Positions 13,170 through 53,658 are shown, numbered from the stretch's first letter. The stretch is 64,000 bases of DNA from an uncultured Gemmatimonadales bacterium (GCA_963748815.1 CAVVKJ010000010.1:662124-726123); one strand, 5' to 3'. Numbers and translations: made by a program. The notes: generated by a model from the sequence alone, not told the origin.

Positions 13170-13240
13170 GGAAACCCTCTCGTTGAGACCATCGTGGTCC
13201 GCGCCGTGAGCGTTTCACTTCGGACCGGCTGCACCGGCTC
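12770..13240. repeat. copy 1 of the ~1885-bp-period tandem duplication (best-conserved block)
   Basis: 13081-13240 aligns by eye with 14966-15125 (for example GCCGGCAACGGCTCGGTCGTCTGGTCGT..GCTCAGCATCGCGATC). The N-termini of paralogs A and C are highly similar over ~130 aa. Block limits are approximate. Confidence 0.6.
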
Positions 13241-14011
13241 GTAGTGGGTGACATTCAAATAAACTATGCTCGTGTTGGAAAGATCACTGCTGCAATAAAC
13301 TTCGTCATCGGCCAAGCGCACGCAGGTGAGCGAATTGTAGGCGAATCCGGCGATGGGGAGCTCCGGCAATCCCGTGGGCCCCGGCCGTACCTCTGCATTT
13401 GCCCAGAGCCAGAGCGAGTTGGCTCCGGCAAATCCGAGCACCAACGCCTTGACGCTGTACCCGGCCAGACGGGATCCGCCACCCGGCCCAAGCACCATCG
13501 TCGGAAGCCGAACATCTTGATCGCCCCAGCACCACACCTCGCCGTTGGCCTTCCTGCCACAACTGAACCCGTCCGCCACCGTCAGCTCGACGAAGCGGTG
13601 CTCGCCAGCCACATACCCCACACCGTTGTACCCCGTAATTGTGCCATCTCCCGGCGGGCCGATACCCCAACAGGCGGCGGTCGAGTCTGCTAGGAGTCCG
13701 CACGCCCGGTAATCTGGATACAGCACGGGGATTCCCACGCCGTCAGACCACGACATCCAAAGAGCGGTGAAAGCCGGCGAACCCGCGATTTGCTCCGGGG
13801 CTGACCCGTAAATCCAGCACCAGGCGGTCGAGTCGGCGACCGAGATGCCGCAGAATCGTTTGTCCCTCCCCTCACCGGGACGCATGCCGCCGACGAGCTG
13901 ACGAATCACGGGAAGGCCCGCGACGAGAGCGACGTCGGGCGCGCCTGCACTCGCGCACCAGACCGCTCCCTGTGTGTCGAGCCCGCAGGCAACGGATCCG
14001 GCAACGGCCAC
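13166..14011 (-). CDS. RCC1-like repeat paralog B (no signal peptide; begins mid-repeat)
   Basis: GTG lies 2 nt after the TAG of paralog C and gives VAVAGSVACGLDTQGAVWCAS. Contains AWCW, ACWG and VWCWG. The C-terminus [25 protein letters not shown] is shared with paralog D. GTGA overlap with paralog A. Confidence 0.6.
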   Translation of the reverse strand: MAVAGSVACGLDTQGAVWCASAGAPDVALVAGLPVIRQLVGGMRPGEGRDKRFCGISVADSTAWCWIYGSAPEQIAGSPAFTALWMSWSDGVGIPVLYPDYRACGLLADSTAACWGIGPPGDGTITGYNGVGYVAGEHRFVELTVADGFSCGRKANGEVWCWGDQDVRLPTMVLGPGGGSRLAGYSVKALVLGFAGANSLWLWANAEVRPGPTGLPELPIAGFAYNSLTCVRLADDEVYCSSDLSNTSIVYLNVTHYEPVQPVRSETLTARTTMVSTRGFP

Positions 14012-14013
14012 GC

Positions 14014-15054
14014 CTATGCCTCCTCGCCGGTGGTGCGCCCACAGCTGAACCGATCGCCGACCACCAATTCCACGAAGCGATGCCCACCGGACACCACCAC
14101 CGCACTGTCCATCCCGCTACCCACAGGGCCATCGCCTGCAGGACCAACGCCCCAGCAGACGGCTACCGAATCCGCTTGCAGGCCGCACGCCCGGTAGTCG
14201 CCATACGGAACCACCGCTGCGCCGAAGGCATTGCCACGTGACAACCATATGGCGCGAAGCGCCGGCGAGGCGATGACCTGGCTCGGCGGCGAGGCGAGCG
14301 TCCAACACCACGCTGTCGAATCAGCCGCGGCGGAACCGCAATATTGTGGCGACCGTAGGTAGGTGAATCCGAGGAGGGCCCCTGCGATTTGGCGAATGGC
14401 CGGAAGGTCTGAAATCTGAGTCGGGGTCGGCGACTGTGCGGTGGCACACCACACCATCCCTACACCGTCCAGCCCGCAGACCGAAGGTCCTGCCACCGCG
14501 AGATCAACGAAGTGATGGGTATCGTCCACCAGACCAGGGGTGAAATTCGCTCCGGCATTCGGCGCGACGGATACGGGCGAGGAGTTGCCCCAGAATGGCG
14601 CCCCCCAACACCAGAGCGCTCCTGCGCGCAGCCCGCAGGCAAACCCGTCCTCCGCGGACAGGCGGTCCACCCGAAATGCCTCGCCCGTGGACTCGAAATT
14701 CGCCTGAGCGCCCTCGAGAGTCCCGGCCCGCACCCGGTTCACGCCCGACGTACTCCCCAGCGTCCACACCGCCTTCGCCAATCCGTCCGCATCGGTCTCA
14801 TCGGTCGTTGGCGCGATGCTCCCCCCACCCTGCCGCACCACCCACGTCACCTCGACCCCCGCCCTTGGCGCCCCAGAGGGATCGACCGCGCGGACGATGA
14901 GAGTATCGATCAACTCCCAGCCAGGCGCGCCCACGGTAGAGGGGGCTTGGACGATGACCAGGTCGGCCGGCAACGGCTCGGTCGTCTGGTCGTTGCAGGC
15001 GACAGTGCTCAGCATCGCGATCAACATCAGCCCTGCGTGACGCGATGGGATCAC
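14014..15054 (-). CDS. lipoprotein paralog C: Ig-like domain plus RCC1-like repeats, ending abruptly at TAG
   Basis: GTG start gives IPSRHAGLMLIAMLSTVAC. The ORF ends SCGRTTGEEA-stop at the point where the paralogs continue GEVWCWG. Confidence 0.65.
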   Translation of the reverse strand: MIPSRHAGLMLIAMLSTVACNDQTTEPLPADLVIVQAPSTVGAPGWELIDTLIVRAVDPSGAPRAGVEVTWVVRQGGGSIAPTTDETDADGLAKAVWTLGSTSGVNRVRAGTLEGAQANFESTGEAFRVDRLSAEDGFACGLRAGALWCWGAPFWGNSSPVSVAPNAGANFTPGLVDDTHHFVDLAVAGPSVCGLDGVGMVWCATAQSPTPTQISDLPAIRQIAGALLGFTYLRSPQYCGSAAADSTAWCWTLASPPSQVIASPALRAIWLSRGNAFGAAVVPYGDYRACGLQADSVAVCWGVGPAGDGPVGSGMDSAVVVSGGHRFVELVVGDRFSCGRTTGEEA

Positions 15055-15125
15055 GGCAGACCTCTCGTTGACATCATCGTCGTCCGCGCCGTGAGTGTCT
15101 CACTTCGGACCGGCTGCACGGGGTA
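14655..15125. repeat. copy 2 of the ~1885-bp-period tandem duplication
   Basis: See 12770-13240. The start codons of paralogs A (13169) and C (15054) are exactly 1885 bp apart. Confidence 0.6.
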
Positions 15126-16037
15126 GTACGCGAGCTCGCCAACGATCGTACTGCCGCCGTCAAGCTCGTCCGAACAGTACACTTCGTTCCCGGCCATCCG
15201 GAGGCAGGTGACGGTGTTGTAGGCCATCGAAAGGACGCCGGCGTTGGGCAGCCCGGTTGGGGGGAGGAGCATCGGGGCGGTGGGTGCCCACCAGTGCTGG
15301 AACTGGCCCGGCGACAGGGCGGTGAGGACCCTGGCCTGGGATCCGCCGAGGAGCGTGGCGCCGGAACCGACCGCAGTCGGGGTCGTAGGCGTCAGGTCCG
15401 GCCCGCCCCAGCAATCCACCTCTCCCGTCGGCAATCGTCCACAGGAGAAGCGATCACCCACGGTCAGCTCCACCCAGCGGCCCCCTCCCGTCACGGCCAC
15501 CACCGAGTCGAGCCCGCCCCACAGAGATCCATTCCCAGGCTGGCCCACACCCCAGCAGTAGGCGGTCGAGTCCGCCGTAATCCCACAACCGCGATAGTCC
15601 TTGTACCGAACAGGGGCCGCACCGAACGTATTCCCATTCGCCACCCAGATCGCCGCGAAGGCCGGTGATCCCACCACCGGCTCCGGGACGGAGTCGGTGC
15701 GCCAGCACCAGGCAGTCGAATCGGAGGCCGCAAGCGCGCAGAACCGCATGCGCCCGCTGCCCCACCAATTATTGGCGCCGACCAACTGGCGGGCGGCGGG
15801 CAGGCCGCCCACCTGTTGGAGGGCGTGGGACGCTCCTGTACTACACCACACTACCTGCGCAGGATCGAGTCCACAGACTGTGGACCCCGACACCGCAATA
15901 TCCGTAAATGCGTGGAGGTCATCCACCAGCGCCGGCGATACGTTCGCAGGTGGGAAAGGTCCTTGGGATACCGGTTCCCCGTTCGCCCAGAAACCAGGTC
16001 CCCAGCACCACAGTGTCGTTCCGACCATGGGAGCCAC
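15051..16037 (-). CDS. RCC1-like repeat paralog D (no signal peptide or Ig-like domain)
   Basis: GTG start gives APMVGTTLWCWGPGFWANGEPVS, which aligns with the middle of paralogs A and C. An in-frame TGA lies 11 codons upstream. GTGA overlap with paralog C. Confidence 0.6.
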   Translation of the reverse strand: MAPMVGTTLWCWGPGFWANGEPVSQGPFPPANVSPALVDDLHAFTDIAVSGSTVCGLDPAQVVWCSTGASHALQQVGGLPAARQLVGANNWWGSGRMRFCALAASDSTAWCWRTDSVPEPVVGSPAFAAIWVANGNTFGAAPVRYKDYRGCGITADSTAYCWGVGQPGNGSLWGGLDSVVAVTGGGRWVELTVGDRFSCGRLPTGEVDCWGGPDLTPTTPTAVGSGATLLGGSQARVLTALSPGQFQHWWAPTAPMLLPPTGLPNAGVLSMAYNTVTCLRMAGNEVYCSDELDGGSTIVGELAYYPVQPVRSETLTARTTMMSTRGLP

Positions 16038-22340: not shown

Positions 22341-22344
<4 letters not shown>

Positions 22345-24854
22345 TCCAGTACCCCCAGCCCGTGACGGGCAAAGAAATCCTCGCACTTGGTGCGCACCTG
22401 CGCCCACGACCCGATGACCCGCTCCGCCCGCGGGAGCCCCGCCAGCACCAGGGGGCCGTACCGCTTCGTCACCACCCGGCGGTCGAGCAACACCACCACG
22501 CCGACGTCAGTGGTGGAGCGGATCAGCCGCCCGAACCCCTGCTTGAGCTTGAGCGCCGCGTGCGGGAGGAGATAGCCCATGAAGCCGTCCTCCCCCGCCT
22601 CCGCCAGCCGCTCGAGACGCGCCGCGGTGATCGGCTCCGACGGCACCTTGAACGGCAACTTGCACAGCACTAATCCTCGCAGCGCACGCCCCGGCACGTC
22701 CACCCCCTCCCAGAAGGAGTCGGTGCCGAGGAGGATCGCGTTCCCCGCGTCGCGGAACCGGCGGAGCAGCGTGTCCCGGCTGCTCTCCCCCTGTACCAGC
22801 AGCGGCCACCGGGGGTCGAGCATCGTCCGCAGCTGCTGCGCCGCCCGCCGCAGGGCGGCGTGGCTCGTGAACAGGACGAACAACCCCCCGTCGGCGGCGT
22901 GCGCCAGGTCGGTCACCGCCTGCGCGAGGGCGGCGTCGTGCGCCGCCTCGTCCTCCCGCGGGTCGGGGAAATCGTCGGGGATGCCGAAGAGGCATTGCGA
23001 GGGGTAGTCGAAGGGAGACGAGAACACTTCGCGGGTGGTCACCGGGCTCGGCGAGACCGCGAGCCCCAGCCGCCGCTCGAGGAACTCGAACTCGCCACCC
23101 GCCGCCAGCGTCGCGCTGGTGAGGACGACCGTCTTCAACCGCTCGAACAGCAGCTCCCGGAGCACCGGCGCGAGATCGAGCGGCACCGCCGAAAGCTGGG
23201 TGTGCTGCCGCTTGGCGCCGGAACGTTCGATCCAGCGGACGGTGGCGGCGCCACCGGCCGCGGGGCGGAGCGTCCGGTTGAGGCCGTCGGACACGTTGTT
23301 CAGGCGGCGGACGACCGCGCGCATTTCCTGCAGCAGCTGGTCGCCCCGTTCGGTCGACTCCACCTGGGCCAGGCGGTCCTCCACCGTTTCCACCTGGTTC
23401 TTGATCTGGTCGAAGCTCGACAGGAGCGCGTCCAGCTCCATCCGGAGCCCCTCCTCCCAGACCTCGTCCTTCTCAAACTCGTCGGTGAGACGGCGCTGGC
23501 CGCCACCCGCCGCCTCCGCCATCCCGTGCAGGCGAAGGAAGAGCTGCTCCGCGGCGCGGCGCGCGTCGCCGATGGCCGGCATCAGCCGCTCGCGCACCAG
23601 GTCGAGGCTGGCCCGGCTCAGCAGGTCGCCGCGCCCCGAGAGCTCCATGACCAGCGACGGCACCAATCCCTTGCGGTTCCGCTCGAACCGGCCGAGCAGG
23701 CGCTGGACGCCGCGGCTCGTGACCTGCGTCCCGAGGTGGGACGCCGCGACATCTTCGAGGTGGTGGGCCTCGTCGAGGATGAGCCGCTGGTAGGGCGGGA
23801 GCACCGCCGCCTCTTCCCAGTTGTCCGACGCCTGCCGGACGGCAAGGTCGGCGGCCAGGAGGTGGTGATTCACCACCACCACGTCGGCCTCGGCCGCGCG
23901 CCGCCGCGCCTTGAAGAGGAAGCACTGGTCGAAGAAGCCGCACTTCACACGGGTGCACAGATCGGCCTCGGCCGAGATCTCGTCCCACACTTCGCTGGTC
24001 GGCTGCACCGGCAGGTCGCTCAGCGTCCCGTCCGCGGTGCGCGACGCCCATTCCGCGAGGCTCACCAGCTCGTCCTGCTTGTCCGGCTCGAGCAGGCTCT
24101 GCTGCGCCCCCGTGGCGTGCTGCAGCCGGGAGAGGCACAGATAGTTCCGCCAGCCCTTCAGCAGCGCAAACTTCGGCGCCCAGCCCTCCTCCGCCAGCGC
24201 TTCCCGGAGCATCGGCAGGTCCTTGCCGACCAGCTGCTCCTGGAGGTTGATCGTGTTGGTGCTGATGACCGTGCGCTCGTTGTTGGCCCGCGACCAGGCC
24301 AGCGCCGGCACCAGGTAGGCGAACGACTTCCCGACCCCGGTGCCCGCCTCCAGGACGAGGACGCCGCCGTCGTTGTAGCCGTCGGCAATGAAGGCCGCCA
24401 TGTCGCGCTGGCTCTGCCGATCCTCGTACTGGCCCAGCACCCGGGCGACGGGCCCGTGCTCACCCAGCGTTTCCACCACGGCGTAGGGATCGAGCCGCTG
24501 GAGCTTCTGTGCGTGCGGGACTTCGACGACGACGTACAGCCGCTCGCCGGCGTTATCGATGATGCCGAAGCCCACCCCCTCATCGTGCAGCCGGGCTGCC
24601 ACGGCCAGGTCGGGCTCGGAGGGCTCGAGGTTGCCGCTGGGATGGTTGTGGAGCAGCATCTGGCCGCGGCGGGCGGCCCCGGGGAGGGCGAGCACCATCT
24701 GGACCGTACCGCGGGCGACCGCGCGCGCCGCGGTGACTACCCCCTCCTCGTCCACGTCGGCGACGAACGACACCTCGCGACCGCCGGCCGCGCGAATCTC
24801 GCCGGCCAGCAGGGTGCGCACGGCCACGGCGATGCGAACCACGGAAACGGTCAC
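22341..24854 (-). CDS. RadC/JAB(MPN)-like N-domain fused to a DinG-type Fe-S DNA helicase
   Basis: The N-terminus carries LLHNHPSGNLEPSEPD (JAMM-like). The helicase part has EAGTGVGKSFAY (Walker A), LILDEAHHLED (DEAH), and Cys spaced C..C-x4-C-x5-C as in E. coli DinG (C120/C194/C199/C205). One continuous 837-aa ORF. Confidence 0.8.
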
Positions 24855-26821
24855 GGGGCCGGCGCGGGATCGATAAGAATGAAGGGTGCGTCGTCCTCGC
24901 CCATGGCGCGGAACCAGGCGATCAGCGCGTCGATGCTGTCAGGCGGGAAGATGCCCCGCGTGCCGATCATCCGGCGGGTGATTTCCAGCGTCCCGTCGAC
25001 AAAAGCGTAGGTGCCCCAATACTCGCCAAACACGCTGGCCGCGTGCACCGAAGGCGGCAATTGGGGGCGCCATCCGGCCGGCAGGACGATGCGCACCTTG
25101 ACGACGTCCTCCTCGGGGCCGAAGACGCGGGCGGCGTCGATCGGGAAGCGGCGCACCGGCAGCTGCTCCAGCGCATCCGCCGCGTCGGTGAACGCCGCCA
25201 CGGTTCCCACGGGGTTCTCGAGGATCCAGTTGCTGCCGGAACGGCGCAGCGCCTTGCCGTCCTGCACGGAGAGCGAGACCCGCACCGGCGCGGCCAGGTC
25301 CAGCCCCTGGAACGTCTCCAGGCTGTCTCCCCGGGCGCCGGTAAACCACCCCTGCGCGATCTTGCGCGCGAAGTTGGCCCGGCCGGCCGAATCCATGGGT
25401 GACTCGAACAATTCCCGCAGCTCCCACTCCCGCGACCCGGTCATCTCCTCGCTGTACGCCCCGTTGAACTTGCCGGCCGGATCGAGCCGGCCGGACAACT
25501 GGATGAGCGACAGGCGCTCGGCGGGCGTCTCCTCCGGAAAGGTGAGTTCCTCCACCGCGCCCGCGGCGGGCACCCCGAGGCCGAACTCCCCCTGCAGCTG
25601 CGGCGGCAGGACGCCGAGCGGCAGCAGCGCCACCGTCAGGTCGGCGTAGACCCGGCCCTCGGGAAGCGTGACGTACGCGATGGCATGGTCGAACTGGTCC
25701 ATCGAAGGGAGGCCCCGTTGGACGCCCCCGTCGCTGCTGGTGAGGACGGTGACGGCGTTGAATCCCAGCGACCGGAGCGCGGCCACGAACAGCGTCGCCT
25801 TGTCCTTGCAGTCGCCGAAGCCGCTGGCCACCACCTCGGCGGGCGGGCGGGGCTGGTAGCCGCTGATGCCGAGGGAAATCGACACGTACCGAATATCCTG
25901 CGCCACCCAGCGCTGAATCGCCGCCGCCGTGTCGCGCGCCGTGGTGGCGTCCGTCACCAGCGACCGGACCTGGCGCACCAGCTCGGGCGAGAGGGCGTAC
26001 CGGTCCTCCGCCAGTGTTCCGTACCACCGGCCGATGTCACCCCAGGTCAGCGGCGACGAGGCCGCCACCCACATGTAGATGTCGTTCGAATCGGCCGCGT
26101 AGGCCTCGGGCTTGATGCGCGGGAGATCTTCCGTGGCCCAGGTCATCACCTGGCGGCCGTTGGACCGCTCCGTCAGGCGCGGAAAGTTGAGGTTCCGTTC
26201 CTCGATCCGGAGCCGTTCCCCCTCCGGCGCGTCGATGATGAGCCGGGACCGCTTCACCATGAGTCCGGTGCTGACCCCCCACCACTGGTAGAAGTCACCC
26301 GGCACCCACGCCTTCGTCTTGACGGTCGTGTAGCTGTAGTCCACGATGGTGCCCACCGCCACGCCGCTCATCGAGACGCGCACCACCTTGCGATTGGCGT
26401 ACACCGGGGCGCCCATCGCCGCGGGGACGTCGCTCTCCTGCTGCTGCGCGGGGCCGGCGCTGAGGACGGTGCCGTCGGGCTGGACCACGCGAATCCAGTT
26501 GAGGGTGAACTCCTCGTTGTCCGGCGACCAGGAGAAGGAATGCTCCGCGAGCCCCTCGACCGCGGCCTGCTTCAGGACCTGGACCACCTGTCGAAAGGTC
26601 CGCCGCTCGCGACCGTCGGCCTCGACGACGATGACACCGTCGTCGAGCAGGAAGGCGGCGGACTCCTCGGGAAAGTCGGCGGGATCGACGGCGAGCCGGT
26701 AAATCGAGTCGGAACGCACCGAGGGATCGCCGGCGGGGGTGATGCGGGGCGCCTGCGCCGACGCGCCTCCCGGCAGGAGCAGGATTCCGACGACGATCCA
26801 GCGGAGTCGCTTCAGGCTCAC
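24851..26821 (-). CDS. secreted DUF3857 plus transglutaminase-like domain protein
   Basis: Signal peptide is MSLKRLRWIVVGILLLPGGASAQ. The transglutaminase core reads SGFGDCKDKATLFVAALRSLG..DHAIAYV (Cys-His). Confidence 0.75.
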   Translation of the reverse strand: MSLKRLRWIVVGILLLPGGASAQAPRITPAGDPSVRSDSIYRLAVDPADFPEESAAFLLDDGVIVVEADGRERRTFRQVVQVLKQAAVEGLAEHSFSWSPDNEEFTLNWIRVVQPDGTVLSAGPAQQQESDVPAAMGAPVYANRKVVRVSMSGVAVGTIVDYSYTTVKTKAWVPGDFYQWWGVSTGLMVKRSRLIIDAPEGERLRIEERNLNFPRLTERSNGRQVMTWATEDLPRIKPEAYAADSNDIYMWVAASSPLTWGDIGRWYGTLAEDRYALSPELVRQVRSLVTDATTARDTAAAIQRWVAQDIRYVSISLGISGYQPRPPAEVVASGFGDCKDKATLFVAALRSLGFNAVTVLTSSDGGVQRGLPSMDQFDHAIAYVTLPEGRVYADLTVALLPLGVLPPQLQGEFGLGVPAAGAVEELTFPEETPAERLSLIQLSGRLDPAGKFNGAYSEEMTGSREWELRELFESPMDSAGRANFARKIAQGWFTGARGDSLETFQGLDLAAPVRVSLSVQDGKALRRSGSNWILENPVGTVAAFTDAADALEQLPVRRFPIDAARVFGPEEDVVKVRIVLPAGWRPQLPPSVHAASVFGEYWGTYAFVDGTLEITRRMIGTRGIFPPDSIDALIAWFRAMGEDDAPFILIDPAPAP

Positions 26822-28116
26822 GTCTTCAGTTCCTTCTTCTTGGCCGCGGGGAAGAGCACGTTGTTCAGGATCAGGCGGTACCCGGGTGAATGCGGATGCA
26901 TCGACAAGTCGGTCGGGGCGTCACCGATCTGGTGCTGGGGGTCTTCCGGGTCGTGCCCCCCGTAAAAGGTCCAGGTGCCCTGCCCGTGCTCCCCATGAAG
27001 ATACTTGGCCCACGGCGCTCCCGGCTCGTCGGCCAGGACGGTGACCCCCGGCTTGATCCGGCTCTTCCGGAACGAGGTCGTGAGTCCGTAGAAATCGGGG
27101 ATCGACTCCCGGTGATTCTGGACGAGCATCGTCGCCACCGGGTCGATCTTCGCGCTGAAGCCGAACGACCGGAAGCTCCCCAATTCCTGCCGCCGGCTGA
27201 GCGCGTTGACCTCGTGGCCGTCGATGTCGGAGAACTGCGACACGGTCGGGCTCAACTCGAGGCGCGCGTCCTGGAAGGCGAGGGCGCGGCTCCAGTCCAT
27301 CTTGGCGGTGGCGTTGGGGTCCATCGGCGTCTGGTCGGCGTACGCCGCCGCGATGTCCACCCCCGCGCCGGCCAGCGCAAGGTCGAGCGTCTCGGTCGCG
27401 GCGCACATCGCGAAGAGGAACCCCCCCTGCTGGACGTAGGCCGCGATCGCTTCCGCGACAGCGCGCTTCTCCGCCGGGACGTTGGGAAAGCCGAACGCCC
27501 GCGCCATCGCGGTGTTGCGCTCGACCATCTCGGTCAGCCAGGGCGCGCCCGCGTACGTGAGGTAGAACTTGGAGTACTGCCCCGTGAAGTCCTCGTGGTG
27601 CAGGTGAAGCCAGTCATACCGCGCGAGCCCCGTCCCGCCTGGCGCCAGGACCTCGGGATCCCAGACCTTGTCGAAGTTGATGCCGGCATACCGCAGCACC
27701 ATGGTGACCGCGTCGTCCCACGGCGCGGCATTGGGCGGGGCGTACACGGCGACCTTGGGCGCCTTTTCCAGCGGCACCGCCTCCATGTTGCCCAGCTGGA
27801 GCTCGGCGCGGATGCCGAGGAGGGCACTCTCATCCAGCGGTTCGGTGGTCACTCCGGCCAGCGCGGCATCGCGCGCCGTGACGGGATCGGACGGGACCAG
27901 GAAGGCGCCGCTCCGATAGTTGAGGAACCATTCCGCCCGACCACCTCGCTCGAGGAGCCGGAAGACGACCCCGTACGCCTTGAGATGGTCGCTCTGGGTG
28001 TCGTCCATCGGAATGAGCAGCCAGGGCGCGCGCCACACCGACCGCGGCGGCCACGCGAAGAAGGGGGCCGCCGCGAGGACGCCACCGGCGCTCCGGAGAA
28101 ACTCCCGGCGTCGCAT
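26818..28116 (-). CDS. Tat-signal protein of unknown function (possibly class I glutamine-amidotransferase-like fold)
   Basis: Internal ATG at 28116 gives MRRREFLRSAGGVLAAAP (twin-arginine signal). The LLIPMDDTQSDHLKAYG family is often mis-named in annotations. The fold assignment is from memory only. Confidence 0.65.
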   Translation of the reverse strand: MRRREFLRSAGGVLAAAPFFAWPPRSVWRAPWLLIPMDDTQSDHLKAYGVVFRLLERGGRAEWFLNYRSGAFLVPSDPVTARDAALAGVTTEPLDESALLGIRAELQLGNMEAVPLEKAPKVAVYAPPNAAPWDDAVTMVLRYAGINFDKVWDPEVLAPGGTGLARYDWLHLHHEDFTGQYSKFYLTYAGAPWLTEMVERNTAMARAFGFPNVPAEKRAVAEAIAAYVQQGGFLFAMCAATETLDLALAGAGVDIAAAYADQTPMDPNATAKMDWSRALAFQDARLELSPTVSQFSDIDGHEVNALSRRQELGSFRSFGFSAKIDPVATMLVQNHRESIPDFYGLTTSFRKSRIKPGVTVLADEPGAPWAKYLHGEHGQGTWTFYGGHDPEDPQHQIGDAPTDLSMHPHSPGYRLILNNVLFPAAKKKELKT

Positions 28117-29840
28117 CAGCTCTCCGGAATCCCGCCGCGCGCGGCGTCGAGCACCCGCCGGGCCTGCGGCACGGCGGCGCTCCCGGGGTACGCGAGGATC
28201 AGGTGCTCGAGGTGGTCCACCGCCTCGGCGGCTCGATTGAGCGAGAGGAGCAGGCGCGCGAGCGCCAGTTCCGCGGCAGGCGCGGTGGCAGGCGCCGAGG
28301 AGTCGGCCGCCGAGCGGAGTAGTCGTTCCCCCTCGACGGGGCGTCCACGCGCCACTTCGACCTGCCCGGCCAGGAGGCGAAGTTCCGCCCCGCCTGCGGC
28401 GGGGGCGAGCCCCTCCGCCACCGCGAGCAGGCCGGTGACCGCCGCGGCCGAATCGCCGCGCGCCAGCGCCAGGAGCGACGCGCCGAGCGGCGGCAGGGAA
28501 TCTTCCTCGATCGGCTGGATGAGCGCGAGCATCGCCGTGCGGGCGGTCGCCTCCTCGCGCGTCCCGGCAAACGGCCCGGCGGCACGGAGCGCGGTCGACG
28601 CCCCCGCGAGGTCGCCACGATAGAGGCGGATCCGCCCGAGCACGGCCATCGCCTCCACCGTGCTGTCGGATGCCAGGACCGCCGCCGCACGGTCCAGGTT
28701 TCCCTGTTGAATCCACCCCTCGGCCACCTGCAGCGTGAGTCGGTCGGCGTTCTCCTGCCCAAGGTGGGTCCGCAGTTCGTCGAGCTGGCGCTGGGCCTCC
28801 GCCACCTGCCCCTCGCGCAGGAGCACCGTCACCAGCGTCGCCGTTGCCCCGGCCGCCATGTCCGGCGGCGTGCTCCCGTCCGCCGCCAGCGCCACGAGCA
28901 TCCGCCGCGCAGACGCGGCGTTGCCCGCGTCGGCATAGGCGCGGGCCGCCTCGAGCCGCATCCGCGACGCGGCGCTGCCACTGCTCCGGTCGGCGATCTG
29001 TTCGAGCGCCTCGCCCCGCACCTCGGCGGCTTCCGTCCCCTCGACGGTGCGCGCCGCATCGAGGAACTGCCGCAGGGCCTCGACCGTCTCGGTCTTCGCC
29101 TCTGGCAGGCTGCTCATCAGGAGCGCATAGGCGGCTGCGGGAGCACCCCACTGGACCTCGAGCTCCGCGCCGAGGCGGCGCGCGGCCGGGGTGCCGCGAG
29201 AGAGCTGGCGGACGATCCTGTCCCGATCGGCGACTGGCGCGCGCGCCAGCGCGTTCCGCGCCGTCAGTCGATATCCGGGATACCGGTCCATCGCGAGCGC
29301 CCACTCCCGGGCCGCTTCGTCCCAGTTGTTCTGGGCGGCGGCGAGCAAGGCCATTTCCCCGGCAAGCGCAGCTGGATCGCCCAGCCGCTCCCGTCCCGTG
29401 AGGTAGGCGCGGCGGGCGCCACTCCCGTCCCGCTGGCCGAGGAGAGTGTTGCCCCAGTCGCGATAGGGGGCCTCGCTCCCCGGCTCGACCACGGCCCAGC
29501 GCCTGGCGACCGCGCCCACGCTGTCGGGCCGGTTGGCAGCGGCCCAGCCTCGCATGGCGACGGAGTATCCAGCGATGATGGACGGGTTGCGGGTCAGCAA
29601 CGCCTCGGCAGGCAGCGCCAGTTCAGCGTCGCGCCGCAACGGCCCCAGCGACCGCTCGAGTCCCAGCAGCGCCGAGAGGTTGTCCGGATACTCGCGAAGG
29701 ACGCGCAGGTAGGCGTCTGCCGCGCCGGAGAAATCGCTCCGACGCTCCAGTTCATAGGCGCGCGTCATCAACTCGGTCTGTCCGGCGAGCTGGCCAGACA
29801 TTCCGAGGAGCAGCAGCAGCGGCAGGAGCGCGCGCCTCAT
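28116..29840 (-). CDS. secreted TPR-repeat protein
   Basis: Signal peptide is MRRALLPLLLLLGMSGQLAGQ. The rest is a repetitive Ala/Leu/Arg helical-repeat pattern over 574 aa. Confidence 0.7.
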   Translation of the reverse strand: MRRALLPLLLLLGMSGQLAGQTELMTRAYELERRSDFSGAADAYLRVLREYPDNLSALLGLERSLGPLRRDAELALPAEALLTRNPSIIAGYSVAMRGWAAANRPDSVGAVARRWAVVEPGSEAPYRDWGNTLLGQRDGSGARRAYLTGRERLGDPAALAGEMALLAAAQNNWDEAAREWALAMDRYPGYRLTARNALARAPVADRDRIVRQLSRGTPAARRLGAELEVQWGAPAAAYALLMSSLPEAKTETVEALRQFLDAARTVEGTEAAEVRGEALEQIADRSSGSAASRMRLEAARAYADAGNAASARRMLVALAADGSTPPDMAAGATATLVTVLLREGQVAEAQRQLDELRTHLGQENADRLTLQVAEGWIQQGNLDRAAAVLASDSTVEAMAVLGRIRLYRGDLAGASTALRAAGPFAGTREEATARTAMLALIQPIEEDSLPPLGASLLALARGDSAAAVTGLLAVAEGLAPAAGGAELRLLAGQVEVARGRPVEGERLLRSAADSSAPATAPAAELALARLLLSLNRAAEAVDHLEHLILAYPGSAAVPQARRVLDAARGGIPES

Positions 29841-32800
29841 GGCGCCGGTCGCTCGGTCAGGCGCCTGAAGTACTCCAGCACCAGCCGGCGATCCTCCGGC
29901 GAGAGCCCCTGCAGCTGTTCCCAGCTCGGCAGCCGGAGCTGCTGATCGTCCACGCCCAGCTGCGCCCGAAGCGCCGGCGGAAGGCGCACGTCGTCCTGCG
30001 CCCCGGTCGTGCTCTGCCGCTCCTTCTGGTCGTCCTGCTCCTCCCCCTGCAGCGTCCGTCCGGCATCGAGCATCCGGCGGAACAACCGCTCCTGCCGTTC
30101 CACCGTGCGCTTGTCGAGCCGACCGGCCTCCAGTTGCCGCGCGAGGTCCCGCGCCTCCCCGGCCAACTCCCCTGCCCCTTCCGACTGGGTTTCGGCCCGC
30201 AGCCGTTCCAGCTCCTCGGCGAGTGCGCGCTGCTGCGCGGACAGCTGCCGGATCTGCTCCTGCATCGCGCCTCCGCCCACCATCGGCAGCATCTGGGCGC
30301 CTTGCTGGCTCAGCTGGCCCTGCTGCTGGGCCATCTGGTTCATGCGCGCCATCGCCTCGGCGAGCCCGGAGCCGGACCCGGAGCCGGACACATCCCCCCG
30401 CGCCCGCGACATCTGGTAGGCCGCAGCGTTCAGCGCTTCCACCGCCTCGCCGGCCTGCGCCGTGGCGTCGCGCTGCCCCGGCACCGCAGTCGAGAGCGCC
30501 TCGCGGGCCGCGCTCATCTGCCGGCGGGCCGACTCGAGCGTCGCCCCGATCTGCGGCGGCACCAAAGCGTTCTCCCCCGACACCTTCTTGTACTGTTCCG
30601 TCAGCTTCTCGACCCCCTCCTCCACCACGGCCTGCTGGGCCCGGAAGGTCGACGCTGACTCACCCAGGCGCAGCGCCTCGCTGATGGCCAACTGCCGCTC
30701 CGCAAGGCGGCTCGTTTCCGCCAACATCTGGTCGATGGCCGCCAACACCTCCGCCTTCCACTCGCCCTGCACATCCTGGCGTTGCTCGTCTATCTGCTTC
30801 TCGAGCGCCTGCAGCCGCTCCTCGGCCTGCTGCCCCTGGCGCTTCGCCGCCTGCGGCTTGCCTTCCTTGGCCGCGGCCGCCGCCTGCTTCATTTCCGCTG
30901 CCGCGGCGGAGGCCGCCTTGGCCGTCGCCTCCATGCGATCGGCCTGCTCGCTGTTCTGCATCCGGTCAAGTTCCTTTGCCGACTCCTGCATCGCCGAGGC
31001 GAGCGAATCGGCCCGGGCCGCGAGCGCTTCCTCCTGTGCGGCGGCACGGGTCGAATCGGCGCGCGCCACCTCCTCGTTCCAGCGCCCCTGCTCCTTCGCA
31101 AGGTCGCGCGCCTCGGCCGCCATGTTGGCCATTTGCCCCTCCATGGCCGCCCGTTCGAAGAGCTTCTGGCTCCGTTCCAGCGCCTCCTTGAGCTGGCGCT
31201 GCGCCTCCGCAAGCTCCTCGAGCGCGCGCCGGGACCGCGCCGCGTCGAGCTGGCTCAGCGCCTCCCGCAACTCCTCCAGCTGCTGGCGCATTTCCGGGGT
31301 GAGCGCGCGGTCGAGCTGCTCGGCGATCTCCTGCATCCGGCGCTCGAACTCCGGGTCCTGCACACCCGCCTCCGCCGCCGCGCGCTGCAAGTCGTCGATG
31401 GCCGCGCGCGTCTCCTCGGCCTGCCGCACCAACTCCTCCTGCTGCCGGGCCACCGCTTCAGCCCGCTTCGCCTCGTCGAACGACATCGCGGCCGCTTCGC
31501 GCCGGCCCGGCTGTTCAGCGCTCGAGCGGGACGCCTCGCGCGAGAGGTCTTCCGTCTGGCGCTGCAGCCGCTTGCTCGCCGCGGCGAGCGAGTCGAGCTG
31601 GGCGCCCACCGACTCCGTGGCGGCGCGCTCGGCCGCCCGCACCTCGGCGAGCGTCGGGAGGCGGAGCACGTACTCGCGCGAGCGCCCAGTCCGCCGGCCC
31701 GGCGCGTTGTCGGTCGCGACCGCGTAGTAGCGCACGGTGTCGCCCGGCAACAGCGAGCGTCCCCCGAGCTCCAGCACCCACGGGACGATCAATCGGTCGG
31801 GCGCCCCAGCCGGGATCGGGACCTCCTCCCGCCGCTCCAGCTCCTCGATCCCCAGCCGACTGATGCGCCGGCTCACCACCACGAGCGCCGTGACCCCGTG
31901 GTCGTCTCGCGCGTCGACGACCAGCGGCACCCGGAGCCCGAGGGGGGCGAGCGTGTCCGCTCCCGGCACCGGGATGCCGACCGCCGGCACGCTGTCCGGC
32001 GCGATGCGCAACAGCAGGGCGCCGTCGTTCCCGGCCAGCGGCATCCCGTTCGAGGTCGTCAGCGCCAGGCGATACGCCCCCGACGCGACGGGGACGCTCC
32101 GCCCTTCGAACCGCCCTCCATCGACGACGAGCACCACGGGACCCCGCGGGCCGACCAGGGCCGCGGCGGAGAGTGGCGCGGTGGCCTCCCCTTCCACCAG
32201 CAGGCGCGTCCCCTCGGGGAGCAGGATCGAATCGGGGCCGAAGGCCAGCGATTCGTCCTCGATGCCCAGATACCTCGGGTACTGCGCGGTCACCGACAAC
32301 GACCCGAGGAAGGCGGGAATGCGGACCGCGACGTGAAGGGTGTCCGATCCCCGACTGCCGCTGGTGGCGCGGACGAAGAGGTCGGCGGTGAGAGGCTGGC
32401 TTAGGACGGTCGCTTCCCCGATCGAATCGAGCGTGACCTCCTCGGGTCGCCAGGTCTCGCCCGGCGCTCGCGTCCAGAGGGTGGCGACGCCGCGGCCCGG
32501 GGCGCGCACCACGAGCGAAACCCGGGCTCCCCGGTCCACGGAGAGCGCAGAGGCGTCGAGTTGGACGGCGCCCATCGCGAGTCCCAGAGCCTCGGCGGGA
32601 TGCCAAAGCATTCGGACCGGCGCGCGGCCCGGCCCGGCCCCGAGCAAACAGGCCCCGCCGACGACCAGCGCGACGGCGCTGATGCGGTTGGATCGCAAGA
32701 CGCGGGCGGTGATCGGCGCCAGCGCCGCCGGACCCCGTGCCGCGAGGTCCGCCGCCCCGGCGTTGTCGGCGGCAAGGTAGAGGTCGTGGCTCAGGCCATC

Positions 32801-33124
32801 TGCCGGCGGAGCGAGCATGCCGGTGAGCGCGCCGAGCCGCCAGGCGCCCTCCGCCTCCAGGCGCCGGGCGAGCAACGGCACCCTGAGGCTCCGCACTCGA
32901 CGCGCCACCAGGACGGTAGCGGCGGCGGCGCCCACCAGCGCCACGATCCACGCGGCCGGCACCCACCAGAGCGACTGCACCAGGCCAAGCCTCGCGAGCC
33001 ACGCCGCGCTCCCCAGCACAATGAGCCCGATGCCGATGACCAGCGCGCCGCCGCCAGTGAGCGACCGCCGGGTGATCGGGAGGGTCAGCCGCTCGAGGGC
33101 GTCCCGCGTCTGCACCGGAGTCAC
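29837..33124 (-). CDS. large membrane protein with extended coiled-coil (DUF4175-like)
   Basis: 1095 aa. N-terminal TM segments, a central beta-rich region, then ~450 aa of A/E/Q/R-rich coiled-coil. GTGA/ATGA overlaps with neighbours. Confidence 0.7.
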   Translation of the reverse strand: MTPVQTRDALERLTLPITRRSLTGGGALVIGIGLIVLGSAAWLARLGLVQSLWWVPAAWIVALVGAAAATVLVARRVRSLRVPLLARRLEAEGAWRLGALTGMLAPPADGLSHDLYLAADNAGAADLAARGPAALAPITARVLRSNRISAVALVVGGACLLGAGPGRAPVRMLWHPAEALGLAMGAVQLDASALSVDRGARVSLVVRAPGRGVATLWTRAPGETWRPEEVTLDSIGEATVLSQPLTADLFVRATSGSRGSDTLHVAVRIPAFLGSLSVTAQYPRYLGIEDESLAFGPDSILLPEGTRLLVEGEATAPLSAAALVGPRGPVVLVVDGGRFEGRSVPVASGAYRLALTTSNGMPLAGNDGALLLRIAPDSVPAVGIPVPGADTLAPLGLRVPLVVDARDDHGVTALVVVSRRISRLGIEELERREEVPIPAGAPDRLIVPWVLELGGRSLLPGDTVRYYAVATDNAPGRRTGRSREYVLRLPTLAEVRAAERAATESVGAQLDSLAAASKRLQRQTEDLSREASRSSAEQPGRREAAAMSFDEAKRAEAVARQQEELVRQAEETRAAIDDLQRAAAEAGVQDPEFERRMQEIAEQLDRALTPEMRQQLEELREALSQLDAARSRRALEELAEAQRQLKEALERSQKLFERAAMEGQMANMAAEARDLAKEQGRWNEEVARADSTRAAAQEEALAARADSLASAMQESAKELDRMQNSEQADRMEATAKAASAAAAEMKQAAAAAKEGKPQAAKRQGQQAEERLQALEKQIDEQRQDVQGEWKAEVLAAIDQMLAETSRLAERQLAISEALRLGESASTFRAQQAVVEEGVEKLTEQYKKVSGENALVPPQIGATLESARRQMSAAREALSTAVPGQRDATAQAGEAVEALNAAAYQMSRARGDVSGSGSGSGLAEAMARMNQMAQQQGQLSQQGAQMLPMVGGGAMQEQIRQLSAQQRALAEELERLRAETQSEGAGELAGEARDLARQLEAGRLDKRTVERQERLFRRMLDAGRTLQGEEQDDQKERQSTTGAQDDVRLPPALRAQLGVDDQQLRLPSWEQLQGLSPEDRRLVLEYFRRLTERPAP

Positions 33125-33816
33125 TGGCCGGACCCGACCGCATAGGCGATCAGGTTGACGCCCATGCGGAGCGCAGACTCCCGAATCGCCGGATCGTCCT
33201 TGTGGACGTCGGGATCCTCCCAGCCGTCGCCGAGGTCGGATTGATAGGTATAGAAGAGGGCGAGGCGGCCGTCGAGGAAAATGCCGAACCCCTGCGCCGG
33301 CTTGCCGTCGTGCTCGTGCACCTTCGGCACGCCGCGGGGAAACTGGTAGATGAGGTTGTAGATCGGGTGGTCGAGCGGCACTTCCTCAAGCGGCCGGTCC
33401 GGGAAGAGCCGGGCCAGTTCGCGGCGGAGCGACTCGTCCATCCCGTAGTTGTCATCGGCGTGGAGGAAGCCTCCCTGCAGCAGGTAGCGTCGGAGGGTGA
33501 CGAGGTCCTCGTCGCTGAACCGCACGTTGCCGTGTCCGGTCATGTAGAGGTAGGGAACCTCCCATAGACTCGGCGAGGACAGGGTGACCACCAGTTCCCG
33601 GGACGCCGTCTGCACATCCGTGCGGGCCCGGACCGCCGCCAGCAGATTGGGGAGGCTCGACGGGTTGGCGTACCAGTCTCCGCCACCGTCGTAATGGAGC
33701 CGACCGATGGTCACGCCCGACTCGCCCTGCGCCGACAGGGGGTGGACCCCGGCGAGGCAGAGGGCGGCGATCGACGAGAGACAGAGGCCCCGCACGGGGG
33801 ACCCGACCAGCTTCAC
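33121..33816 (-). CDS. DUF4159 domain-containing secreted protein
   Basis: Contains GRLHYDGGGDWYANPSSLPNLL and LRRYLLQGGFLHADDNYG..HPIY, matching my recollection of DUF4159. A signal peptide is present. Confidence 0.7.
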   Translation of the reverse strand: MKLVGSPVRGLCLSSIAALCLAGVHPLSAQGESGVTIGRLHYDGGGDWYANPSSLPNLLAAVRARTDVQTASRELVVTLSSPSLWEVPYLYMTGHGNVRFSDEDLVTLRRYLLQGGFLHADDNYGMDESLRRELARLFPDRPLEEVPLDHPIYNLIYQFPRGVPKVHEHDGKPAQGFGIFLDGRLALFYTYQSDLGDGWEDPDVHKDDPAIRESALRMGVNLIAYAVGSGQ

Positions 33817-34652
33817 GGGAGCTCCATGACCAGGCGGTACACCTCATTACGGCCAAGGCCGCTCGATTCCGTCAACCGGCGAACCACATCCTTCCGGCTC
33901 AGGCCCTCCGCCAGGAGCGCCTCGGCGGCCAGGCGAATTTCGCCGAGGTCCGGGGCGGCGTCCGGTTGATCCGCCGTTCCCTCCAGCACCAGGGTGATTT
34001 CACCCTTGGGCGGATGCTCGTCGTACCACGCCTCGAGCTCCGCGAGAGTGCCTGCCCGGAATTCCTCGTGCACCTTCGTGAGCTCCCGCGCGACGACGGC
34101 CCGCCGCTCCGCCCCGCACACCTCAGCCAAGTCGCGCAGCAGCGCCACCAGGCGGGGCGGCGCCTCGTAGAAGACCACCGTCCATGGCGCCGCGGCGGCG
34201 CGCGCCAGTTCCTCGCGGCGCTCACGACCCTTGCGCGCGGGAAACCCGAGGAAGAGGTACCGGTCGGCCGGCAGGCCGGCGGCGGAGAGCGCGGTCGCCA
34301 CCGCCGACGGCCCGGGAATGGGGACGACGGCGCAGCCGGCCCCCCGCACCGCCGCTACCAGCCGGGCGCCGGGATCGCTGATGCCGGGGGTGCCGGCGTC
34401 GGTCACCAGCGCCACTGCCTGCCCCGCCTGGAGCAGCGCGATGATCGGGGCGGCCTGGCTCGCCTCGGTATGCGCATGGACGGAAAGGAGCCGCGGGGTC
34501 GCCCCGATGTGCTGCAGGAGCGTGCGGCTCCGCCGGGTGTCCTCGGCGGCGACCACGTCGACCGCGCGGAGCACGTCCGTGGCGCGAGTGGTCAGGTCTC
34601 CGAGGTGTCCGAGCGGGGTGGCGACGACGTAGAGCGTACCGGGGACTACCAG
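33813..34652 (-). CDS. rsmI: 16S rRNA (cytidine1402-2'-O)-methyltransferase; start codon uncertain
   Basis: Contains GTLYVVATPLGHLGDLTTRATDVLRAVDVVAAEDTR and VTDAGTPGISDPG. No ATG/GTG/TTG lies between ATG 34790 and the conserved N-terminus. CTG 34652 is used here as a provisional start. Confidence 0.8.
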   Translation of the reverse strand: MVVPGTLYVVATPLGHLGDLTTRATDVLRAVDVVAAEDTRRSRTLLQHIGATPRLLSVHAHTEASQAAPIIALLQAGQAVALVTDAGTPGISDPGARLVAAVRGAGCAVVPIPGPSAVATALSAAGLPADRYLFLGFPARKGRERREELARAAAAPWTVVFYEAPPRLVALLRDLAEVCGAERRAVVARELTKVHEEFRAGTLAELEAWYDEHPPKGEITLVLEGTADQPDAAPDLGEIRLAAEALLAEGLSRKDVVRRLTESSGLGRNEVYRLVMELP

Positions 34653-35662
34653 GTGAGGCTCCAGGGAAAATGCGAATAGAAGCCGGCGGCTTGCAGGAGG
34701 TGGCGCTGCTCGCGGGTGGCGGTCTGCAGGATGCGCGGCCCCGCCCCGGGGGAAACCACCTCGATTTCCGTGAGCAGCGCCCCGGTCCACGCCGCCAGGT
34801 CGGCGGTCAGGTCGGCGGCCGGCGTGGCCACCATCGATGGATCCCCTCCGTTCGAGGGCAGGAGATGCGCGAGCGACTGGCGCAGCGGGGCCAGCCGGCC
34901 CGTCACGCGGTCAACCCGACGGAGCCCGTCCCCCGGCGACTCAGCCTCGATCGCTTCCGAAATCCGGATGAACAGCTCCCGATACATCCGGATCTGGGAC
35001 GGCAACGCCTGGGCCGGCAGGCCGGCAATGGAAGGAATCCCGCTCACGGAGAGCGCCGGCCGTACCCCATCGGCGTCCGGCTGGAAGATCCCCTCGATGT
35101 ACGCCGGAAGGGAAACCGTCTCCGGGCGCGCGTAAAAGTAGCCGCCGCTGAACTTTCCCCGGTCGAACTGCAGGTAGTTGACCCGGCCGTTGGAGATGAT
35201 CTCGAGCCCCCCGGTCAACGACTCCTCCACGACGCGCGGGAAGATCAACTCCGGATGCTTGGAGTCCACCACCCACGGCTCCGCCGGCGCGGCGCACGCC
35301 TGATACATCCACTCGAGCTGGGCCATCGGGGCGGCGCAGTACGCGGCCTCCGCGCGTTCCGGGTCCGCCTTGAGCCGGCGCACGGCCTCGGCGATCGGCA
35401 GGACGGTCCGCTGCCCGGCCCCGATGCCCGCCGCGGTGACCAGCTCCCCCGCCTGGAAGAAGAGCAGGATCAGTTCGTCGGGGAGATAGCCGAGGAAATA
35501 GGCGTCCACCTTGCCGTCGCGATCCCGCTTGGCAAAGGAGATGAGATTGTCGAGGTGGAGGTAGATGAGCCGGGTGCGCGCAAGCAGGGTGTCCGACGCC
35601 GGAAAGGCGACGTCGCTCAGCCGGATGGCGGAGTGAAGCAGGCGGGTGCCGCTGACGCGCAT
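34646..35662 (-). CDS. hypothetical protein
   Basis: 338-aa ORF with ordinary composition and an ATG start. No family recognised. Confidence 0.6.
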   Translation of the reverse strand: MRVSGTRLLHSAIRLSDVAFPASDTLLARTRLIYLHLDNLISFAKRDRDGKVDAYFLGYLPDELILLFFQAGELVTAAGIGAGQRTVLPIAEAVRRLKADPERAEAAYCAAPMAQLEWMYQACAAPAEPWVVDSKHPELIFPRVVEESLTGGLEIISNGRVNYLQFDRGKFSGGYFYARPETVSLPAYIEGIFQPDADGVRPALSVSGIPSIAGLPAQALPSQIRMYRELFIRISEAIEAESPGDGLRRVDRVTGRLAPLRQSLAHLLPSNGGDPSMVATPAADLTADLAAWTGALLTEIEVVSPGAGPRILQTATREQRHLLQAAGFYSHFPWSLTW

Positions 35663-53202: not shown

Positions 53203-53645
53203 TGGAAGTAATCCTGCGCGACGACATCAAAACGCTTGGCAAGGCTGGAGATCTCGTCCGCGTGAAGCCGGGCTACGCCCGCAACTTCCTGCTGCCGAAG
53301 GGGCTCGCCTACGAGGCCACCGAGGGCAACAAGAAGCGGATCGTCGCCGAGACCAAGGCGCGGAACGTCCGCCTCGCCGCCGAGAAGGACGCGGCCGTGG
53401 CCGCCGCGGCCGGCATCTCGGCTGTGCTGCTCACCTTCACCCGCAAGGCGGGGGAAGAGGGGAAGCTGTTCGGCTCGATCACGTCGCAGGACATCGCCGA
53501 CAGCCTCGCCAGCCAGGGGCAGACCGTGGACAAGCGAAAGATCGAGCTCACCCATCCGATCAAGACCGTGGGCGAGCACACCGTCATCGTCCGCCTCCAC
53601 CCCGAGGTGCACGCCGACGTCCGCGTGACGGTTGTCGCAGAATAA
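53199..53645 (+). CDS. rplI: 50S ribosomal protein L9
   Basis: ATG at 53199 inside the longer ORF 52401..53645. Contains MEVILRDDIKTLGKAGDLVRVKPGYARNFLLPKGLA. Confidence 0.9.
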   Translation: MMEVILRDDIKTLGKAGDLVRVKPGYARNFLLPKGLAYEATEGNKKRIVAETKARNVRLAAEKDAAVAAAAGISAVLLTFTRKAGEEGKLFGSITSQDIADSLASQGQTVDKRKIELTHPIKTVGEHTVIVRLHPEVHADVRVTVVAE

Positions 53646-53658
53646 GGAGCGCCCGCCG

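Follow-up and report, generated by a model that had tools for sequence, protein, structure and literature searches.

A conserved four-gene extracytoplasmic module of Gemmatimonadota and related lineages, with a candidate enzyme family misnamed asparagine synthetase B

Genes under Study and Main Finding

Five closely packed genes lie on the minus strand between positions 24851 and 33816 of a 64,000-nt stretch of DNA (~70% G+C) from an uncultured Gemmatimonadales bacterium (GCA_963748815.1, CAVVKJ010000010.1:662124-726123), the whole of which is called the window below. The question raised by this locus is whether the five genes encode a single envelope system and which of them belong to it. A preliminary description, made from the sequence, took all five as one uncharacterised module, possibly a periplasmic scaffold or a protein cross-linking/processing system. 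Based on the results presented here, we suggest that genes 1-4 constitute a conserved four-gene extracytoplasmic module, which we regard as very probable. Its proposed mechanism, a scaffold carrying a Cys-dependent enzyme, is put forward tentatively and at rather less than even odds. For the overall reading, in which module and mechanism are taken together, we give a probability of about 0.5.

The five genes are as follows:

33121-33816, minus strand: gene 1, a DUF4159 protein of 231 aa (match to Pfam PF13709)
29837-33124, minus strand: gene 2, a membrane/coiled-coil protein of 1095 aa, apparently a distant DUF4175 relative (alignment with orthologues)
28116-29840, minus strand: gene 3, a TPR protein of 574 aa, putatively exported (weak TPR matches and an orthologue hidden Markov model, HMM)
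26818-28116, minus strand: gene 4, a protein of 432 aa, predicted to be class-I glutamine-amidotransferase-like (GATase1-like), with a putative twin-arginine signal (homologues and predicted fold)
24851-26821, minus strand: gene 5, a DUF3857 + transglutaminase-like protein of 656 aa (Pfam matches)

All five open reading frames (ORFs) were found exactly where they had been described. Their codon usage is strongly coding-like (G+C content at third codon positions 0.85-0.9), and the stop and start codons of neighbouring genes overlap by 1-4 nt.

Conservation of Genes 1-4

Co-occurrence was assessed from two sides, in 80 genome loci with +/-10 kb flanks on the gene 4 side and in an independent set of 80 metagenome loci on the DUF4159 side. 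On the gene 4 side, the DUF4159 gene, the gene for the large protein, the TPR gene and gene 4 were all present in 32 of the 36 evaluable Gemmatimonadota loci, and the four exceptions lacked one or two genes each. All four genes were also found in 9 of the 24 evaluable loci of other phyla; these nine came from Eisenbacteria, Krumholzibacteriota, Marinimicrobia, an 'FCB group' (Fibrobacterota-Chlorobiota-Bacteroidota) metagenome-assembled genome (MAG) and unclassified MAGs. One more of the 24 lacked DUF4159 only, and six kept only the TPR gene beside or near gene 4, the TPR gene being directly upstream of or near gene 4 in 16/24. On the DUF4159 side, this gene was followed by the large gene in 53 of the 54 metagenome loci with at least 1 kb of downstream sequence, and all four genes were present in 19 of the 20 with at least 7 kb downstream.

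At least five phyla with differing flanking genes share the same four-gene order, and stop-start overlaps join all four genes in distant lineages. In the Marinimicrobia locus L070, the four genes form a unit of their own, preceded by a divergently oriented gene and followed by a gap. Genes 1-4 keep their adjacency and common orientation from phylum to phylum, with changing flanks, and the carriers of the module are Gemmatimonadota, Marinimicrobia, Eisenbacteria, Krumholzibacteriota and related FCB lineages.

All four products bear predicted export or membrane signals, and genes 1 and 4 are unusually conserved, with ~50-57% identity between phyla. Exported proteins rarely keep ~50% identity between phyla. 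For comparison, identity is lower (35%) for the FAH-family gene, which is also found downstream of the module in the two lineages compared. The high identity of genes 1 and 4 suggests that their envelope function is under tight constraint and probably enzymatic.

One of the four exceptions among the Gemmatimonadota loci is the Gemmatimonadaceae locus L026 (8129-11218), where one ORF without internal stops covers the matches of both the TPR gene and gene 4; this is either a fusion or a sequencing frameshift.

Gene 4: Family, Targeting Signals and Conserved Residues

More than 8000 homologues of gene 4 were found at 90% clustering, and the family occurs in at least 598 species genomes. The closest matches all belong to Gemmatimonadales MAGs. 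Identity is 75-91% inside Gemmatimonadales and 49-57% in Eisenbacteria, Latescibacterota, Krumholzibacteriota, Marinimicrobia, Calditrichota, Cloacimonadota, KSB1, Zixibacteria, Ignavibacteria, Kapabacteria and Bacteroidota. Gene 4 gave no Pfam, NCBIfam or PDB sequence match (PDB at E <= 10), and a Pfam search at E <= 10 with gene 4 and all 70 aligned family members returned noise only.

The start codon is the ATG of MRRREFLRS, and the N-terminus (MRRREFLRSAGGVLAAAPFFAW) contains a twin-arginine motif of the S/T-R-R-x-F-L-K type followed by a hydrophobic stretch. This agrees with the earlier proposal of a Tat (twin-arginine translocation) signal and predicts export; the match to Pfam TAT_signal is weak (E 4.3). 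The RRxFL motif is present in 115/117 Gemmatimonadales-type homologues compared with 6/120 from other phyla, 113/120 of which have ordinary Sec (general secretory)-type signals. In addition, six divergent representatives of ~500 aa carry a Por_Secre_tail C-terminal domain (CTD) of the type IX secretion system (T9SS), with E 7e-8 to 7e-15, and one CTD-bearing homologue from Bacteroidota is annotated as a T9SS type A sorting domain protein. Since Tat, Sec or T9SS signals are predicted in all lineages, the gene 4 protein probably works outside the cytoplasm in each of them.

The product of gene 4 in the window has no T9SS CTD and ends in ...AAKKKELKT. This basic tail (AAKKKxxKT-COOH, 26818-26850 in the window) is invariant across phyla, and in the Bacteroidota forms the CTD takes its place, which suggests that the tail may itself be a targeting or anchoring element.

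The sole Cys of gene 4, C238, is near-invariant, as are the motifs H171-x-H173-H174-E-D176-F-T-G and G-G-H388-D-P-E391-D. C238, H174, D176 and H388 are invariant in sets of 70 and of 42 aligned sequences and are retained in 20-24 of the 25 most divergent representatives. The most conserved element, even in the most divergent representatives, is HxHHEDFTG (171-179).

Gene 4: Predicted Fold and the Name 'Asparagine Synthetase B'

An AlphaFold (AF2) model of gene 4 was obtained from a 70-sequence cross-phylum alignment, with a predicted local distance difference test score (pLDDT) of 75.7 and a predicted TM-score (pTM) of 0.80. It replaced an earlier, poor model based on 31 close homologues (pLDDT 50.6). 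The top Foldseek matches of the model were STM3548 (2gk3), STM1381 (3soz), SpuA and TrpG, together with the GATase-like domains of GH42 and lacto-N-biose phosphorylase. At E <= 1e-3, nearly all matches were GATase1-like proteins or domains, with a probability of 0.99-1.0. Based on this model, a class-I glutamine-amidotransferase-like fold is predicted for gene 4, in line with the GATase-like domain mentioned in the preliminary description.

Class-I GATase-like proteins are the best match to the model, and the predicted position of C238, after strand 233-237 and before helix 239-249, is that of a nucleophile elbow. The GGH388DPE391 segment comes after strand 380-385 in the model, and a His-x-Pro-Glu following a late strand may correspond to the 'HPE' motif of those proteins. 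At the same time, gene 4 differs from them in several respects. It has no sequence match to any of their Pfam or PDB members, is ~180 residues larger owing to long insertions, carries a putative Tat or Sec signal and the extra invariant HxHHEDFTG, and has no synthase partner domain.

Where members of the gene 4 family are named in databases (NCBI), they are called 'asparagine synthetase B' (hence AsnB-like below). The likeness to asparagine synthetase B ends with this database name, because the predicted fold is class-I and not Ntn-type and the N-terminus is a putative signal peptide. No Pfam/NCBIfam match to asparagine-synthase or GATase-2 families was found in gene 4, and nothing was found among PDB sequences at E <= 10, a search that would include AsnB if deposited. 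A true asparagine synthetase was ruled out by the sequence searches, the signal peptide and the different fold, and the name 'asparagine synthetase B' on this family is a misannotation.

Genes 1-3: DUF4159, DUF4175-like and TPR Proteins

Gene 1 was assigned to DUF4159 with a score of 227.7 bits against Pfam PF13709 (cutoff 25.9; E 1.3e-67), covering profile positions 2-201 of 202, so the family named for it earlier was correct. The gene 1 profile matches PDB 4I66 (Hoch_4089, function unknown) with E 2e-22, and identity across phyla is 44-65%. The invariant motifs are GGGDWY, TGHGN, GGFLHADDNYG and PKIHEHDG. According to motif inspection, Asp121/Asp122 of gene 1 stand at the position of the gene 4 Cys, and GGFL[HF]A, directly before the elbow position, is common to both genes. 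The His-rich motifs TGHGN and HEHD are also at positions apparently corresponding to those of gene 4. It is plausible, on weak statistics, that genes 1 and 4 are variants of a single fold that have diverged, and gene 1 may have a class-I GATase-like fold.

Gene 2 had no Pfam or NCBIfam match, even at E <= 10, and it aligns end to end with positional orthologues from at least five phyla. PF13779 (DUF4175) was matched by 7 of 12 orthologues (best E 8.8e-17), including the orthologue from locus L054 with 37.6 bits, over the gathering cutoff of 27.3, and NCBI labels close relatives 'DUF4175 family protein'. The DUF4175-like assignment of gene 2 therefore stands by way of the orthologues and not by a match of the window protein, whose membership of DUF4175 is probable by transitive homology only. 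Like DUF4175/alphaproteobacterial TIGR02302-type proteins, gene 2 has N-terminal transmembrane segments and a long low-complexity helical region; unlike them, it lacks a PF13779 match of its own.

Three transmembrane segments are predicted in gene 2 (26-44, 55-73 and 148-166). Residues ~170-490 are beta-rich and Ig/PKD-like, and their profile matches a PKD domain in PDB (E 3e-5). The following part, residues ~491-1040, consists of 57% A/E/Q/R and shows a hydrophobic periodicity of 3.3-3.8 (z = 4.6 vs shuffles), and its profile matches designed antiparallel coiled coils in PDB. The long coiled coil that had been described in this 1095-aa protein is thus recovered as a ~550-residue coiled-coil-like amphipathic helical region. 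A conserved motif, ERQERxxxRMLDAxRxL ... YF, is located at the C-terminus.

The TPR assignment of gene 3 holds weakly. Its own Pfam matches are sub-threshold (E ~1e-4), its orthologues give strong TPR matches, and an HMM of the 605-665-aa TPR proteins from the same position in other phyla found gene 3 as its sole, collinear match in the window (E 1e-12). As for targeting, inspection revealed hydrophobic N-termini on four products, which, with the predicted transmembrane segments of gene 2 and the twin-arginine motif of gene 4, is consistent with the signals listed in the preliminary description.

Gene 5 as a Lineage-Specific Insertion

Both domains reported for gene 5 are clearly above the Pfam cutoffs, DUF3857 with 115.1 bits (cutoff 24.6) and Transglut_core with 38.3 bits (cutoff 23). 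The single Cys, Cys338, is in a GDCKD context, and His379 and Asp394 were assigned by inspection only. Gene 5 resembles the DUF3857 + transglutaminase-like putative proteases (3KD4) in having both domains and a weak match to PDB 3KD4, and differs in that it stands outside the conserved module.

The genes on either side of the five are the following:

33813-~34574, minus strand: rsmI, upstream of gene 1
22341-24854, minus strand: DinG/YoaA-type helicase with an N-terminal RadC-like JAB/MPN domain, downstream of gene 5

The stop-start overlaps run on upstream to rsmI and downstream to the helicase gene, beyond which an FAH-family gene and an aminotransferase gene continue the tight packing, as does the gene of a 338-aa protein on the far side of rsmI. 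Throughout the minus-strand run of 20.5-36 kb the gene boundaries overlap or are close, and no terminator-like site was found on the minus strand between 22.4 and 36 kb. Because the packing extends past both ends of the five genes, operon structure alone cannot delimit a five-gene unit.

Besides the window, gene 5 was found only in the near relatives L001 and L087, that is, in 1/80 genome loci and 1/20 evaluable metagenome loci. It is missing from L167, the closest relative found (gene 4 product 91% identical), in which the gene 4 stop directly overlaps the helicase start and the gene order is otherwise the same as in the window. These two facts indicate that gene 5 is a recent, patchy insertion between the module and the helicase gene. 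Co-occurrence outside this genome thus applies to genes 1-4 (32/36, 9/24 and 19/20) and not to gene 5, and the conserved unit consists of four genes, not of the five proposed initially. The initial idea of an uncharacterised extracytoplasmic module is retained, and its cross-linking/processing part, which rested on this non-conserved gene, is not supported.

The RadC-JAB/helicase fusion is also present in L167, and throughout Gemmatimonadota the helicase gene keeps its place downstream of the module.

Relation to MoxR/DUF58/vWA Systems

Bat operons combine MoxR, DUF58 and vWA membrane proteins with TPR proteins (PMC5700661). Named systems of this Bat/MoxR-DUF58-vWA kind are B. fragilis BatI, those of Leptospira, Borrelia bb0170-bb0176 and R. 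leguminosarum RL3499-RL3502. The preliminary description pointed to a link between such operons and the families discussed here, and stated that the window lacks the ATPase and vWA partners. The absence was confirmed: no MoxR-type Walker A or DEINR motif was detected in the six frames of the window, and none of its 36 proteins scanned with Pfam matched AAA_3, DUF58 or VWA.

The link itself has one instance. Across 160 neighbourhoods (+/-10 kb), MoxR motifs were found in a single ORF, in the Latescibacterota locus L054 (5831-14683; MAG JAJEIO010000049.1). This locus encodes a DUF4175 protein, a short TPR protein, the AsnB-like protein, a HEAT/PhyH protein, MoxR (AAA_3, E 5e-62) and DUF58 (E 1e-51), so that MoxR-DUF58 lies one gene downstream of the module; it lacks DUF4159. 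The other 159 neighbourhoods gave no such association, which shows that the link does not hold generally among neighbourhoods. Upstream in L054 there are a DUF6785/DUF6784 membrane protein and a CHU_C T9SS-signal protein.

Two more DUF4159 contexts, a Corynebacterium resistance plasmid and a Gemmatirosa megaplasmid, showed no MoxR link. In the former (locus L083, Corynebacterium crudilactis plasmid pCRULAC1, NZ_CP015623.1 129740-130357), the DUF4159 gene is 49% identical to that of the window and adjoins a dihydrofolate reductase gene within an IS26/IS6/Tn3-rich multi-resistance region. An actinobacterial plasmid is an unexpected place for DUF4159, an exported protein of FCB type.

The module and the Bat operons are alike as multi-gene envelope modules of unknown mechanism that include membrane proteins with periplasmic domains and TPR proteins (PMC5700661), the TPR protein here being gene 3. 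They differ in that the MoxR ATPase, DUF58 and vWA/BatA are absent from the window and from the 159 neighbourhoods, and that DUF4159, a DUF4175-like coiled-coil protein and a Cys/His GATase1-like protein are found instead. As it lacks the ATPase, DUF58 and vWA proteins that define Bat/MoxR operons, the module is not one of them. Nevertheless, the closest known kind would be the loosely defined Bat-like envelope operons, here in an ATPase-less form that is probably built around two GATase1-like proteins.

Proposed Mechanism and Alternatives

We suggest the following scheme for the module. Gene 2 would be anchored in the inner membrane by its three transmembrane helices, and its Ig/PKD-like and coiled-coil parts would project into the periplasm as a scaffold. 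DUF4159 (gene 1) may bind this scaffold as a conserved binding or metal-site subunit, with an apparently paralogous fold that has Asp/His instead of Cys/His. The TPR protein (gene 3) is proposed to be an adaptor for the gene 4 protein, and the latter would provide the catalysis, as a hydrolase or transferase that uses Cys238, His174 or His388, and an acidic residue. Its substrate would be located in the envelope and could be a peptide, an amide linkage or a protein. In Bacteroidota, the gene 4 protein possibly operates alone or from the cell surface as well. Gene 5 is likely a recent dispensable passenger, whose translational coupling to the operon is confined to this lineage.

A number of observations weigh against this scheme. 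Foldseek gave low TM-scores (query 0.3, target 0.5), which, given the high match probabilities, is consistent with a GATase1-like core with large insertions. A role of C238 in a Cys-His-Glu triad is suggested only by position and conservation. The closest PDB matches (2gk3, 3soz and the GH42 domain) are GATase1-like, have no assigned activity in PDB and are not known to be catalytic. The hhalign comparison of gene 1 with gene 4 yielded only a 15-residue motif with a probability of 32%. Gene 4 is alone in 8 of the 24 other-phyla loci, mostly from Bacteroidota, Cloacimonadota and Kapabacteria, and the CTD-bearing Bacteroidota form is also without module neighbours; gene 4 standing alone implies that it does not need partners next to it in order to work. 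The module genes of Gemmatimonadota are no more syntenic than rsmI and the helicase gene, and adjacency there could partly reflect inherited order. Finally, no experiments or papers on any of the four families were found in the open literature searched. There, 'DUF4159' appeared in the Pfam paper only, 'DUF4175' only incidentally, with A. baumannii AdvA, and judging by titles, no relevant paper linked 'asparagine synthetase B' with T9SS.

Some of these points would suit an alternative that we consider unlikely, namely that the locus holds two independent pairs (TPR with AsnB-like, DUF4159 with DUF4175-like), or a mere inherited gene order, and not one machine. Six of the 24 other-phyla loci (L055, L066, L068, L072, L073 and L076) have the TPR + AsnB-like pair and neither of the other two genes, and one such pair, from Calditrichaceae, sits among lepA-lepB-hemW and yjbQ. 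The lone AsnB-like genes, the equal synteny of rsmI and DinG and the closely packed, terminator-free minus-strand run fit it too. Yet 19/20 DUF4159-side loci with enough flank carry all four genes, the same order recurs in at least five phyla with different flanks, and stop-start overlaps tie the four genes together in distant lineages, all of which argues against separate pairs. A five-gene periplasmic protein cross-linking/processing system with the transglutaminase as its integral catalytic part is highly improbable, having been largely refuted by synteny. Gene 5 is indeed translationally coupled on both sides by 4-nt overlaps, appears to carry an export signal and has retained its Cys-His-Asp set by inspection, but it is absent from 79/80 genome loci, from 19/20 evaluable metagenome loci and from L167. 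This candidate was rejected, as gene 5 is not conserved with the module.

Two further readings connect the locus with known envelope machinery. A Bat/MoxR-type (aerotolerance-like) system, with MoxR, DUF58 and vWA encoded elsewhere in the genome, would be in keeping with the TPR proteins that Bat operons likewise include (PMC5700661) and with the strong MoxR and DUF58 matches one gene past the module in L054. In addition, 2gk3 and 3soz, the best PDB matches of gene 4, presumably belong to a GATase1-like group found alongside BatA-type proteins. Against this stand the single MoxR ORF in 160 neighbourhoods, the lack of AAA_3, DUF58 and VWA matches among the scanned window proteins and the two DUF4159 contexts that are also without MoxR/DUF58/vWA, and we hold this reading to be quite unlikely. 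It is also improbable that the locus serves a cell-surface or T9SS-related function in which the AsnB-like protein is the surface enzyme and the other three proteins deliver or anchor it. This reading would account for the six CTD-bearing representatives (one of them named T9SS type A in Bacteroidota), the replacement of the invariant C-terminal KKKxxKT tail by the CTD and the CHU_C T9SS-signal protein upstream in L054. However, gene 4 of the window lacks a CTD and carries a putative Tat signal; T9SS cargo is generally considered to pass the inner membrane through Sec. T9SS core genes were not noticed near the module, and the CTD-bearing form stands alone.

Significance

The AsnB-like family could be an unrecognised extracytoplasmic Cys/His enzyme and a core envelope-biogenesis factor of the FCB superphylum, mounted on an inner-membrane-anchored DUF4175-like/DUF4159/TPR platform in many lineages and working alone, via Sec or T9SS, in Bacteroidota. 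This broader proposal is speculative, and we consider it doubtful. If it is true, the platform would be a new kind of periplasmic machine without an ATPase, and the family would have been hidden by a wrong name and by the lack of a Pfam model.

The carriers (Gemmatimonadota, Marinimicrobia, Eisenbacteria, Calditrichota and Bacteroidota) are dominant in the environment, and little is known of their envelope biology. If the 'asparagine synthetase B' family were renamed, annotations would be corrected by the thousand, and nitrogen metabolism would no longer be called falsely from it in metabolic reconstructions based on MAGs. The four-gene operon is a genetic target in Gemmatimonas or Gemmatirosa, and the standalone homologue is approachable in tractable Bacteroidota. 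The module is of value as a lead and not as a discovery, and its main asset is a misannotated, very conserved, apparently exported and enzyme-like family.

Other Features of the Window

A 338-aa protein encoded at 34646-35662 (minus strand), between thioredoxin and rsmI, has no Pfam or NCBIfam match, and its position is kept in many Gemmatimonadales loci. Further envelope- or lipid-related genes of the window are these:

5679-7841, plus strand: TMEM260-like O-mannosyltransferase-family protein
53632-55500, plus strand: fatty-acid kinase FakA-DegV fusion
55865-59152, plus strand: PD40/beta-propeller protein of 1095 aa

Finally, four tandem paralogous ORFs (479, 281, 346 and 328 aa) are located at 11730-16037 on the minus strand and encode a Big_1-like Ig domain, RCC1-type repeats and recurrent 'CWG' motifs. 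The G+C content of this segment (0.65-0.67) is below that of its surroundings, and its agreement with the local codon model is poor. A surface-protein array that was duplicated or acquired recently, perhaps with some of its genes split, is a possible interpretation.

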